DNA of 64,000 nt. It comes from Balanoglossus misakiensis (Eukaryota; Animalia; Hemichordata). The stretch is taken from the NCBI GenBank assembly GCA_040954595.2, contig CM082585.2:6411808-6475807 (forward strand), given 5' to 3'. The notes beneath the pieces are model-generated. The model worked only from the letters and a program-made list of their open reading frames with translations, did no database searches and was not told the origin of the DNA. This document shows positions 21,666-27,600 of this stretch, piece after piece; position 1 is the stretch's first letter, and every line of letters begins with the position of its first letter. A program made the translations under genes and the position numbers.

Positions 21666-24600
21666 TTAGTCGACTTGTACCAGAGTGATACGAGTCCTGG
21701 ACGCATTGACATGCCACACGTTCAAATCTTCATACGCATCAATGGCGAGGTCAAACTGATCGGGCGTGTAGCCTTTCGCGAGACTCGCCTGCCGCGCGTC
21801 TTCGTACTTGATGCTCTTTGCACCTTTGCCTTTGATCATATCTCGGATGAAACCAAAGATCACGTCCTCAGCACGCTGTATTCTGTAAAAAATAAAGCAC
21901 AGAGACAAGTTTTTGATCAGTTCAGGTTCAATTTAGAAGTATTATGGACTTGCAACTGTGGTGGTCAGAATTGACAAAGGTACAAACTGAGTATCAGGAG
22001 AGTCACCCCCTGGACATAAAATTGACAAAGGTACAAACTGAAAGCTTTAGACTAGAAGTATCAGGAGAGTCACCCCCTGGACATATCCCCATCCAGACAT
22101 TTCCAACCCAGGGCTAAGGGGCAGGGATCCAGTAGACAAAATGTCCAGGGGGGCCTCTCCTAGAACCACATTTCCTACCTCGTGGTTGTTTCCTGTTGCC
22201 CCGTCAAAGAATCCTTGGACATTTCCATCAACCTCATTGCTTCGTTCACGTCTTCCTTTCCCACCACATCCACCAGACGAAGACGAGCCTACAGAATTTA
22301 AACAGAGTTACAAGTAGTGAGACTCTATTTACAAGCTCAGAAATCACTCAGTATTCCCTTCTGACAAGTTTGTATCTAAAGTTCAGAAGTAGCCATCAGT
22401 AAAATATATCTATGACCCTTAGTTAACTGAAGCCATACACTGTTGTCCATACCAGAGCATGTAGCCCCACTATCTTGTGCAATGAGAAATTAATTACACC
22501 TCTTTGCACAGGACAGCAAGGCTGCATACAATGTATTTTTCACTCTAATATTGGTTTTGTGAACAATTAGTTCGCAACAACACTTTCCATCCTGGGGACA
22601 GCAACACCATGAGGACCCCTCCAATAATCACTCACAGTTGCTCTGAACACAGAAAGTGCGTTGATTCTGCAATGCAAACACAATCCAGGGTGGACGGCTG
22701 AAGGGTGTTGTGTGGTGTGAGATAGAGCCCCACTAAAGTGTGCAATGAGGTTTAGTGATTTCACTGATTGCAGACTATAATGAGGCTTTAGCGTCACACA
22801 ATGGTCGCTTGGTCATCCACGGTTTTCTGCCGATTGTTTCACAGGAACTTTTTAACCACATGCGCCAAGACAACTTACTTCCCAGACACTGACTGATGAT
22901 CATTACACATTTATGTTTTCCATCTTGGACAAATGTGTATCTTACCATCGCCCTTGTGGTGATTGGCTTAAATATTTATCAGTTAATAGTTGTATTTTCA
23001 TAACGTGCGTTTGTTAAATTAAATTTCTTTCTGGGATATGACAAAACTCCCTTGCCTCCTATCACCCCCATATCTCTGTGTAGTGGTCCAATTTTACCAC
23101 AGGAAACAATTGATTTGGACCAAACCATGGTAGTGAAAGGGTTAGGACATTTCAAAACACAACTTATGTTACACTGTGTGATCACAACCACAACATACCA
23201 CTGCATCCAACTCATGCAACCATCTGAGAGACAAATTAGAAGATACAGTCCCTGATTAGAATTTCCCCATATCGATAACATCACCAACTCACCAATGCTG
23301 TAGCCAGACGCAGAATTGCCAGCAACGTACGGGGCGACGTAAACGTTGTATCTTTACTGTTCCGAGCTTCTTTCCTCATTTCCACGTAGGCACCGGTTAT
23401 GTAATCGGTCAGTGCTTCAGGAACGAGTGGATTTTTGGTCTTGCAAAGTGCAACATAACGTCTGAAAATAAATGTAAAATTCAGTATGACATCTACCAAA
23501 TACATATTTCTTACAAAACTTGGAAATTGTAAAGAACATGTATTCAAATCGGGAACCAACTTGGTGGTGAGTCTATATACACTATGCAAAGAAATTTCAT
23601 CAAACTGAACAGATAACCATGTAATACAAAGTATCATAACTGAAGTATATAAATGCTGCTTACCGCATCAGATCCATATCCAACGGCTTGAACTGAGACG
23701 GTGGCTGAACGGAGTGCTGATGTACATAGGTGATGTGCTGTGCTAACCTGCAAATGAAAGATTGCGAGAAATTGTTTGAAGCAGATCGAAATCAAACAAG
23801 AACACAAGACTTCAACATTTACTCTTGAGTGAATAACTTTAAGGATTTCACGTGTGTGTGTGTCAACACCCGACACCAAAGGTCACAAAGAGATCGGGGG
23901 GTTTAGCACGCTTTGGTTACCATGACCACAGCAATTGCAGCATCAGAGTCAATCGTGCATCTTTGTACATACCATGCCCCACTATAAAGTGCAATGGAGA
24001 ACAAATATACTCCTTTTGCACTTAATAATAGGGCATTGTATATACCAAGTCTTATAAAGTTGGCGTTGCTTTTTGTTACCAAGACTCATTTGAGAAATGG
24101 ACAGAAATACTTCTCCGTTTGCGGGCGTTTGGTTTATAGAGGTTCTTTAAACATAAGCTTCTATGTCAAAGAGACTAGAAAAGGTGTTTGGTATAGACAG
24201 GTTTCCAGATTAGACAGAGTTTGGTTTAGAGACACAGGTTTTAGGGAAGGTCGTTCTTGCCCGAGGAGGGGGTTAACTTCAATATCATACAGCACGACTG
24301 AGGGATGGAGGGGTAATTCTCAAAAGATGATGACAGTGTTACAGTTTGGAGCCCCACTATTGCGTGCAATCAGAACATAGACCAAAACTAATGACACCCA
24401 ATAGCGAGGCTTCAAACAGAACATTCTCTCTTCAAAGTCGTCCACTTCCTGTCACGAAAAACTTCAACTTCCTTGGCGGTTGGTCCGAAAACTCCGCGTA
24501 ACAATGTTTTTGCATCAAGCCCCACTGTTCAGTGCAATGCGCATCGTGTTCCAATCACAGTTGCACCAAATAGCAGGGCTTCATACAACACAGTAATCTC

Positions 24601-27600
24601 ACGTAAGGGATGTTCTATTTTTTTTGGGGGGGGGGACGCAGTAGGAAGCCCCACAAGGGAGTGCAATTAGAACAGGGACAAAACTAATCTACCCTCCCTC
24701 GTAAAGCTCCCTACAGGATCACTCATGTCAGCAAAGACTCATTTGACATATGCTGTGTGACGTCAACTTCGCATCTTCGAATTCGGCCTAAAGTACTTCC
24801 CAACATTTCAATGCCATCTGCATATAACAATACTGGTCAAGATTGCCAGCCATGCATTTATGCTAAAATTCATAGCAATGCACACTCGTGCCCATATTAG
24901 CCGGAATAAGCTGTTTTGGGGCAACTACCACTTTACTGCGACCTGTGTAACAACCCAAGTCAGAACTCCAACTGAAAACTTCTGTCAAGAGACATGCAAC
25001 CATCATCCGTGATAAACCTGAACATCTTTCTCCACTCCTGAGAAACTACTGTATTGTAATTCCTACACTCCACCTTCACACCAGAATGTATGGCATTGTA
25101 TCTGCAGTGTAGAAATACCTCCTCCACTGAATGCTTGTACCAGGTAGCAGACTAGAACACCACTGTGATGTGCAATTAGATTTTCTGAAGTCCCTAATGG
25201 CACAATACAGTGGCGTTCCAGCCTACACACAAATACGGTGTCATTACGGGTCTGCACCTTACATAAAAATACAGCAACATTCCAAAAAGAGTGACATTCC
25301 AAGCTGTATATTATACAATACGGTGACGTTACATTCTATACACAATACATTCCAGTTGTAATACAGATGCATTCAAACCAACACACAATGGCAGAAGGGA
25401 TCACTTAAACTATTGATACAAACATTGGAAGGAGTTTATATTACTGTTCCAGCCGTTAAAACAACTGAAAACTGAACAAACCTGAGATCATTATCTCGGT
25501 CGGGTTTATCCTGCATCAGCCACAACAGATCAAATCTTGAGAGCAGGGCGGCTGGAAGCTGAATGTTGTGTTCAATGGATCTCTTGGGGTTGTATCGCCC
25601 GTAGGCTGGGTTGGCAGCCGCAAGGATGGACACGCGGGCGTTCAACGAAGTCATGATGCCAGCCTGAAAGAAACGAAGGGAGGGATTTACAAGATTCAGT
25701 GAATATCAAACCAAACTATATACTTCTTGCGAGTGTGTCACAGAAAACTTCAGTGTCAACTTAACACAAGGTCATTATTACCTTGGCAATGGAGATGGTC
25801 TGCTGTTCCATAACTTCATGTATAGCCGTCCGATCGCCGTCCATCATTTTGTCGAACTCGTCGATACAACACACACCCTGATCGGCCAGGACCAGCGCAC
25901 CGCCTTCCAAGATCATCTCGTTTGTGATCGGGTCTTTCATGACGGCCGCAGTCAGACCAACACCAGATGACCCTCGGCCGGTAGTATACTGACCTGAAAT
26001 CAAATCAGGCATGTCAAATCTATGCATAACAAATAGCTGTTGCTTTGAGAGAACACAGTCCACTTTGACACTGAAGAAATTGTTTTGAGACAGACCCTAA
26101 TTTTTCTAAAATTTCGCCCACTATGGTCAAATGTGATAGTGTCATACCTGACACCTCAGCAAGTACAAATTTGTAAAAGTTCAAGCAAACTATGCGTTTT
26201 CATGCACTTTTTAGTTACACACCGTAATTTTGATGGACAATCAACTGTTGCCATTTCAAATCCCCCACCTTTCAAATTCCGACCAACACTGCCAAAGCTT
26301 ACTATGAGAATGGATGGTGTTCTTCTACCAAAAGGAATTTTTCTGGAAAACTTCTATCTCTAAGCGCTGTGACCAAAAACGTTACACACTTACTTCTTGG
26401 TGCCAATCTGTCAATATAGCAGAGCAGCTGACTCTTAGCCACACCAGGGTCACCCATAAGACAAATATTGATGTTGCCTAAAATAAAATAAAAATACAGA
26501 AACAAAAGTGTTTGGGTTAGAAAAGTAAACCGGTCGGTGAATAAAGAGCGCCATCTTGTGTCAGCTGCTCCAAATTTCGCTTGAAACCACGAGACTCCCT
26601 TGCTGGCGATCAACATTTCGCAATGCCACAGAACAGTCATGTAATTTGGAGAACCAGAAATATAGAATGCGAACCAATTGTATTTAGTCAAGACTGTAAA
26701 CACTCCAAAGTACTCCTTGTTCTAATGAGCCGTAAAGGTTCTAGTTTGAAACGGTAATGCATCAAAAATTGGCACCATCCATGTCCACCAAAAGACATTC
26801 TTGTTCAACTTTACTTGCTGGCTGAAACAATTGCTGATTTCACAAAGGATGGCTTGCACAGATCGAATCAGCCCAGAAAATAATCACCGATCACACACAG
26901 AAGGCACGACAGAATATTGACAGCAACCACACATCATAAAATAGCAAATCTTGTATTATAGTAAACATTTCAAAATGACCCAAGGTCTTGACTTTTTTCC
27001 TTAGCGGGTTAAAACTAGACTTTTGCAAACAGGTACTGAAAGTTTTCCCCTGGGAAAAAAATCTGAGAGAACTTGTTTGTTTGTGCGATGTAGTAGTCGC
27101 TGCAACTGGACACCAAACACTGTTACTGCAGACTACCCTTTCTCAAGACTTCATAAAAAAGTTGTGTAATTTGATTCAAGAAAGCGTCACCTCAAGACTC
27201 TCTGGTGCTTTGGTAGAAACAAAAGCTCCCGACTAAGTTTGCACTCTTTTTTTGTTACAAGTCGTTAGTGTTCAGAAGTGCCATGCCTAAATTACAATAT
27301 GATGACTCGCATATGAAGCTAACTTTTGATGTTGTTTTTTCACTGTTGTCAAGACAAGCCGCAAAGTTCGTCAATGGGTTGCAGAAAATTAATTTCTAGA
27401 CCAAGAGATGGTTAACACAACACAGTGCTTATGTGTTTTCTTAAAATACAAAAATATATTTTATACGGCAAATGCTGGTATTTGTAGGTTCCATACTGTT
27501 CATATTACTGGCGAGAAAGTATTTATAAGAGTTATAAAATTGACAAGGCCTGCTGTCAACTCGAACTCTCACCAAAGAGTTCACTCGAACTCTCACCAAA

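Follow-up and report, generated by a model that had tools for sequence, protein, structure and literature searches.

A seven-hairpin cluster in MCM7 introns of an acorn worm is most likely the ortholog of the hemichordate Mir-4818 microRNAs

INTRODUCTION

Two groups of microRNAs hosted by MCM7 have been described that bear directly on the locus studied here. The first, listed as 4818~mcm7, appears as a new family of Hemichordata in Table 2 of PMC11848845. According to that source, Saccoglossus kowalevskii carries seven Mir-4818 copies inside mcm7, in sense orientation and in a 2+5 arrangement with the order P6, P5, gap, P2, P7, P4, P1, P3, and Ptychodera flava carries six copies in mcm7, arranged 2+4 and without P3. 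All 13 published members lie in sense inside mcm7, with precursors of 59–64 nucleotides (nt). The second group is vertebrate miR-106b~25 in MCM7 intron 13, which mixes miR-17-family members with one miR-92-family member, miR-25 belonging to the miR-92 seed family (PMC4834410). In mammals, E2F1 drives Mcm7 together with its intron-13 cluster (PMC4834410), and splicing and cropping are coupled in the human MCM7 intron that hosts miR-106b~25 (PMC3985634). Furthermore, miR-17 and miR-19 are described as having arisen in mcm7, with the hosts lost after genome duplication (PMC11848845).

Here, we analyzed a 64-kb stretch of contig CM082585.2 (the window), for which a cluster of seven microRNA hairpins with a miR-92/25-type seed had been predicted inside MCM7 introns (the original prediction). 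We conclude, with a probability of roughly 0.9, that the seven hairpins represent, in this acorn worm, the orthologous cluster to Mir-4818 of hemichordates, predicted to be cut from MCM7 pre-mRNA to give seven 3′ microRNAs with a miR-92-type seed. The original prediction had left open whether the cluster was already catalogued: it is listed in mcm7 of Saccoglossus and Ptychodera (PMC11848845), and the present species is a third enteropneust. Because the cluster has already been tabulated in mcm7 of two hemichordates, the locus described here is most likely the ortholog in a new species.

RESULTS

The heptamer ATTGCAC occurs at 20 sites in the 64-kb window as against 13.4 expected, so the motif by itself is not enriched. 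Seven of the 20 sites, however, are gathered in 2.77 kb of the minus strand, against an expectation of 0.29 (Poisson P of 3e-8 for a region picked post hoc). To provide a folding control, we placed an identical 92-nt frame around each of the 20 sites and compared it with 200 shuffles. The seven cluster sites folded at −32.2 to −48.6 kcal/mol, with z-scores of −4.7 to −8.6 and no shuffle (0/200) as low, while the other 13 sites gave z-scores of +1.2 to −1.6 in the same frame. The predicted seven hairpins were thus borne out against both the control sites and the shuffles. The accompanying claim that the minus strand folds better held for six of the seven but failed for H2, which folds at −32.2 kcal/mol on the minus strand and at −34.5 kcal/mol on the plus strand. 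In all seven hairpins the heptamer is positioned on the 3′ arm, sense to MCM7. Of the 36 consensus pairs, 24 are changed on both sides when the seven hairpins are compared, a count reached by none of 500 column shuffles, although this control is tilted toward the consensus structure, which was derived from the same seven sequences.

The hairpins follow one another on the minus strand, with H7 first in the order of transcription; the ends of the pre-miRNAs given below were predicted from duplex geometry, and the paralog labels P1–P7 were assigned by order only. H7 is a predicted pre-miRNA of 60 nt at 25156..25215 (−), with its 3′ product (3p) at 25177–25156, a z-score of −8.45, a score of 37.5 bits against the Rfam mir-4818 model and the position of Sko-Mir-4818-P3. 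It is followed by H6 (60 nt) at 24647..24706 (−), with 3p at 24668–24647 (z −4.72; 32.2 bits; P1 position), and by H5 (61 nt) at 24518..24578 (−), with 3p at 24539–24518 (z −8.61; 49.7 bits; P4 position). Next come H4 (60 nt) at 24350..24409 (−), with 3p at 24371–24350 (z −6.50; 46.2 bits; P7 position), and H3 (59 nt) at 23975..24033 (−), with 3p at 23996–23975 (z −8.22; 36.1 bits; P2 position). The remaining pair consists of H2 (60 nt) at 22726..22785 (−), with 3p at 22747–22726 (z −5.91; 48.5 bits; P5 position), and H1 (59 nt) at 22463..22521 (−), with 3p at 22484–22463 (z −6.00; 41.9 bits; P6 position). The first coordinate of each 3p is the mature 5′ end originally proposed, and each was correctly placed at the base before the 7-mer. 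Among the 40 of 171 allelic differences that were listed, a single one maps to the H1 loop, and the mature arms contain none.

A search with a model built from the seven hairpins found no eighth seed-bearing copy in the 64-kb window. One candidate eighth member, at 29277, was rejected, as its seed is not paired within any pre-miRNA-like stem, its z-scores are −1.6 and −1.8, and it has no match to the model. The segment itself, 29256–29277 (−) in MCM7 intron 9, consists of ATTGCAC and a G-rich tail resembling that of the cluster, without a partner arm, and may reflect chance or a decayed paralog.

We next considered the family to which the hairpins belong. At gathering thresholds, Rfam reported no family in the window. 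Under relaxed thresholds, all seven hairpins matched the whole mir-4818 model (RF04013) with 32.2–49.7 bits (E-values of 9e-9 to 1.2e-3), and the mir-92 model was not among the 21 Rfam matches at E-values up to 10. Moreover, the predicted mature sequences are identical to the RF04013 consensus 3′ arm at 16–20 of 22 nt, as compared with 9–11 of 22 for the miR-92 consensus printed in PMC8001136 and only 2–4 of 14 at nt 9–22. The original assignment to the miR-92/25 family therefore does not hold at the level of sequence, where the hairpins resemble Mir-4818. With the MIR-92 family (miR-92a/b, miR-25, miR-363 and the invertebrate Mir-92 clusters) they share the predicted seed, the 3′ arm, tandem expansion and a replication-gene host, such hosts being frequent in that family; they differ in nt 9–22 and in lacking an Rfam mir-92 match, and hemichordate Mir-92 proper resides at other loci.

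The likeness to published Mir-4818 (Saccoglossus P1–P7 and Ptychodera) extends to the host, the sense strand, the 2+5 layout of Saccoglossus and the precursor length of ~60 nt (59–61 nt predicted here). The spacings of the hairpins are 263/1249/375/168/129/509 nt in the window, 102/943/190/126/432/380 nt in Saccoglossus and 238/4797/189/308/147 nt in Ptychodera. The window also keeps the seventh member, which the Ptychodera annotation is without.

The host gene, MCM7, occupies 21666..33851 on the minus strand and comprises 17 coding exons (728 codons, no internal stop) separated by 16 introns, 15 of which are GT-AG and one GC-AG, the GC donor belonging to intron 3 (32053–32313, −). Single exons match the Pfam domains MCM, MCM_lid and HTH_MCM7, and in a comparison of single exons with solved structures the best matches were to MCM7, scoring far above other MCMs. 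The cluster lies in sense inside MCM7 introns, as originally described, but does not form a single block: H7–H3 are contained in intron 13 (23748..25481, −; 1734 nt, phase 2) and H2 and H1 in intron 15 (22289..23292, −; 1004 nt, phase 0), with two exons between them. A contig from run X3 joins exons 15, 16 and 17 without introns, and intron 14 is also skipped. This contig bears alternative-haplotype letters that are found in runs X1 and X2 too, and it therefore looks like spliced RNA of this locus. The removal of intron 15 thus appears to be supported by the spliced contig, while that of intron 13 is assumed from the exon model. Runs X1–X3 represent one sample, possibly the source of the assembly, and do not count as independent support, and X3 is only guessed to be DNA.

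Could the hairpins be copies of a foldback transposon (a miniature inverted-repeat transposable element [MITE]) or chance structures? High-copy repeats do occur in the same introns, and both strands of an inverted repeat can fold. As a rough proxy for copy number, we used the contig depth in one sample (X1). The summed contig depth over the hairpin bins was 56–116, as compared with 98,700 at the repeats at ~23080–23145 and 55,300 at ~24130–24230, i.e., ~1000-fold above the hairpin bins, even though these deep repeats sit 300–500 nt from hairpins. All seven hairpins are thus at background depth, so the dispersed transposon against which the original prediction had cautioned was not found. In addition, conservation is limited to the mature arm and the layout is common to distant enteropneusts, which leaves the MITE or chance explanation extremely improbable. 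Short high-copy dispersed repeats were seen in the MCM7 introns at ~23060–23145, 24130–24230, 29527–29715 and 31713–31748. The two haplotypes also differ around the cluster, with 24060–24319, between H3 and H4, missing from the other haplotype, and with high heterozygosity at 23484–23985, where an alternative contig differs at 44 letters plus 23 gaps in 517 nt.

Upstream of the host gene, the only site in the window with the sequence TTTSSCGC, which we take to be the E2F consensus, lies at 34036..34043 (−), ~190 nt upstream of the MCM7 ATG. This putative E2F-type site falls in a local CpG peak at the MCM7 start, and a looser second site is found at 34101–34108; the E2F-type promoter of the original prediction is thus retained as a putative element. 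It is known that some intronic miRNAs have independent promoters, and the microRNAs could be real but transcribed from an intronic promoter of their own, uncoupled from MCM7. We consider this unlikely, given that all 13 published members are sense inside mcm7, that the cluster straddles two MCM7 exons, and that the CpG peak and the putative E2F-type site are located at the MCM7 start. As to MCM7 itself, self-targeting by the cluster was rejected, with just one 6-mer match in the 865 nt after the stop codon.

The seed depends on where the mature RNAs begin. If the 22-nt 3′ arm is taken to begin at the base preceding the 7-mer, the precursor lengths reported above result, and the predicted mature sequences are invariant at nt 2–8, variable at nt 9–13 and conserved again at nt 14–22. 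In this register, a basal UG at −14/−13 is present in four of the seven hairpins (H3, H4, H5 and H7; p of 0.003), and CNNC at +16–18 in four (H1, H2, H4 and H6, exactly those originally named; p of 0.004), both p values being uncorrected for the five registers tried. Every hairpin has one motif or the other, and among the five registers the two peak together only at the proposed one. The hairpins hence present canonical microRNA anatomy, i.e., a ~60-nt stem-loop, a 22-nt duplex, a lower stem and processing motifs. Taken together, these features suggest that the products very probably carry a miR-92-type seed. The originally proposed identity of AUUGCAC with the miR-92/25 seed is favored in that UG and CNNC fit only this register, and it stands as a prediction from sequence.

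Alternatively, the mature RNAs may begin one base earlier, which would yield three seeds (C-, G- or A-AUUGCA) and no joint miR-92-seed dose. U is the usual first base of microRNAs, and it occupies −1 in five hairpins out of seven, with C at −2 in six. In that register, however, position 2 would vary while position 9 stays invariant, and the counts would fall to 1/7 for the basal UG and 2/7 for CNNC. We therefore regard the shifted seed as improbable and retain the proposed register.

Next, we compared the position of intron 15 with that of the vertebrate host intron. MCM7 exon 15 aligns to residues 561–616 of a 719-residue MCM7 chain, presumably the human one. The window's intron 15 splits ILRLATAL / ARLRL in phase 0. 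In human MCM7, a primer in exon 13 encodes ILRLST, and a primer at the intron 13/exon 14 junction reads AG followed by in-frame ARLRM (PMC3985634). From this junction match, H1 and H2 occupy the intron position of miR-106b~25. The two systems thus share the host, the strand and, for H1 and H2, the intron; they differ in that all seven hairpins here have one seed, five of them lie two introns upstream, and the 3′ halves are different.

A metagenome scan for animal MCM7 loci, covering 27 of 64 parts, gave 19 loci, eight of which (L001–L007 and L012) have an intron at the intron-15 position. None of the five loci spanning that intron whole contains a sense-strand seed-bearing hairpin, and no Rfam matches were found in the 14 of 19 loci scanned. 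These loci indicate no more than an old age for this intron and its frequent emptiness.

On the other side of the MCM7 start, a GPC3/5-type glypican gene extends over 36716..59084 (+), as identified by tblastn and the Pfam Glypican domain. It is arranged head-to-head with MCM7, with ~2.9 kb of CpG-rich spacer between the first coding bases. Comparison with glypican subfamilies gave 192 bits for GPC3, 129 for GPC1 and 121 for Dlp/GPC2, and the top matches are enteropneust glypican-5-like proteins (this and the following comparisons refer to the best 120 of 258 matches). The large glypican exon is 83% identical to that of Ptychodera flava, 70% to Glandiceps talaboti and 63% to Saccoglossus kowalevskii, as compared with ≤48% for the vertebrates among these matches. 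The three best matches are hence enteropneusts, which fits the restriction of Mir-4818 to hemichordates, and the identities place the source as an enteropneust near Ptychodera that is not P. flava, as judged from this exon.

The glypican neighbor recalls another vertebrate locus, miR-17~92 beside GPC5, since in both cases a miR-92-seed cluster adjoins the 5′ end of a GPC3/5 glypican. In chicken, miR-17~92 shares its strand with GPC5 and is listed without an MCM7 host, whereas the cluster described here is enclosed by an intact MCM7 that runs opposite to the glypican. A third vertebrate cluster, miR-106a~363, is located beside GPC3. The main text of PMC8789304 contains no mention of MCM7 or glypican.

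Several further features of the window were recorded. A near-perfect hairpin at 20172–20287 (−75.9 kcal/mol; z −12.75), between the 3′ ends of a TauD-domain gene and MCM7, has no Rfam match at gathering score and may represent either a foldback element or a small RNA not yet catalogued. A second strong hairpin, at 50926–51032 in a long glypican intron (−60.5 kcal/mol; z −8.05 on the minus strand), has no Rfam match at E-values up to 1. Exons of a TauD/TfdA-family dioxygenase, convergent with MCM7, were seen at ~17500–19700 (+), and tetraspanin exons at ~6730–6940 (−). TATG microsatellites occur at ~52400–52600 and ~7700–7950, the first of which yields spurious mir-297 and mir-3149 matches.

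DISCUSSION

Assuming that the mammalian parallel applies, the path from this DNA to its products may be pictured as follows. Pol II would transcribe MCM7 from the CpG-rich promoter with its putative E2F-type site, giving more output in cycling cells. Microprocessor would then crop the 59–61-nt precursors, guided by the lower stems and by the basal UG or CNNC, and Dicer would free 22/22-nt duplexes, of which the 3′ arm would be loaded. The seven products would sum on mRNAs with a seed match, and their targets would overlap those of canonical miR-92. The block shared at nt 14–22 may tune targeting or may merely hold the basal stem.

Several points weigh against the Mir-4818 reading. No hairpin attains the RF04013 gathering score of 92 bits (32.2–49.7 bits here), although this value is a detection cut-off and not a biological feature; we therefore speak of the most likely ortholog and not of a formal Rfam assignment. 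One-to-one orthology with P1–P7 would follow from order alone, and co-transcription with MCM7 is an assumption, as are the dose and the coupling to proliferation put forward in the original prediction. Finally, the U that immediately precedes the proposed 5′ end in five of the seven hairpins leaves some room for the shifted seed.

The assignment to Mir-4818 is compatible with two accounts of ancestry. According to the first, Mir-4818 is a diverged and expanded miR-92 that the deuterostome ancestor already carried in this MCM7 intron, at the locus from which vertebrate miR-25 also came; only the ancestry of the cluster is at issue, and we judge the odds to be slightly better than even. Consistent with descent, the predicted seed and arm are those of miR-92, H1 and H2 lie in an intron at the position of human intron 13 in phase 0, MCM7 adjoins a GPC3/5 gene just as chicken mir-17~92 is placed at the 5′ end of the GPC5 model, and Ciona has three Mir-92 copies 1.2–2.0 kb from the mcm7 3′ end (PMC11848845). 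Several observations speak against it. Specifically, nt 9–22 match the miR-92 consensus at just 2–4 of 14 positions, no mir-92 model was among the 21 Rfam matches, and five of the seven copies reside in another intron. The cluster and the glypican are on opposite strands here but on the same strand in chicken, and canonical Mir-92 is retained elsewhere in hemichordates (PMC11848845). Amphioxus and echinoderms are absent among the 47 mcm7 rows listed in the table of PMC11848845, so descent needs two losses.

According to the second account, the cluster arose or landed independently in hemichordate mcm7, and the host and intron common with miR-25 reflect convergence on S-phase genes; we place this somewhat below even odds. 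In PMC11848845, 4818~mcm7 is classed among the new families of Hemichordata and described as "born in" the intron. The same source records Mir-92 hosts in mcm5, mcm6 and wdr76 (amphioxus), topbp1 (sea urchin and sea star), pola1 (Ciona) and psmc3ip (oyster), and the presence of Mir-92 copies in several replication genes makes convergence on such genes credible. H7–H3, five of the seven hairpins, do not share the intron of miR-25, and that intron is itself old and without a seed-bearing hairpin in all five metagenome loci that cover it whole. On the other hand, convergence would require the same gene, the same one of 16 introns, the same seed and the same strand, which is a narrow coincidence, and a de novo birth must also re-create the miR-92 seed. 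As a separate observation, the run of replication and cell-cycle Mir-92 hosts, which also includes mcm7 in Ciona, is without discussion in the accessible text of PMC11848845.

If the descent account is extended to the glypican, the window may tentatively be viewed as the pre-duplication deuterostome locus of all three vertebrate miR-17~92 paralogs, with a miR-92-seed hairpin in the penultimate MCM7 intron and GPC3/5 adjacent. On this view, Mir-4818 would have diverged from miR-92 and would be orthologous to miR-25 by position, rather than being an invention of hemichordates, and the host transcripts of miR-17~92 and miR-106a~363 would be remnants of lost MCM7 duplicates that kept the glypican. 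We hold this extended proposal to be possible, at less than even odds.

Searches of the open-access literature found no mention of mir-4818 and no paper on a hemichordate microRNA with this seed, on a link between Mir-4818 and miR-25 or between MCM7 and GPC3/5, or on MCM7 together with mir-92 and amphioxus, the papers retrieved for MCM7 and glypican having been judged by their titles and the opening of their abstracts; the supplements of PMC4729200 gave no match to miRNA terms. What is possibly new, then, is that the intron common with human miR-106b~25, together with the GPC3/5 neighbor, suggests a locus as old as the deuterostomes, contrary to the reading of the family as hemichordate-born.

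As a third enteropneust with the Mir-4818 cluster, the species examined here suggests that seven copies are ancestral to the group, which is a modest addition. If the shared intron and the GPC3/5 neighbor are due to descent, the association of a miR-92-type seed with MCM7 would be as old as the deuterostomes, what now counts as a family new to hemichordates would be miR-92 in diverged form, and the locus would provide an invertebrate outgroup for the ancestry of the miR-17~92 oncomir and its E2F control. If they reflect convergence, the cluster would be a clear example of how hairpins with a miR-92 seed have recruited S-phase promoters again and again.

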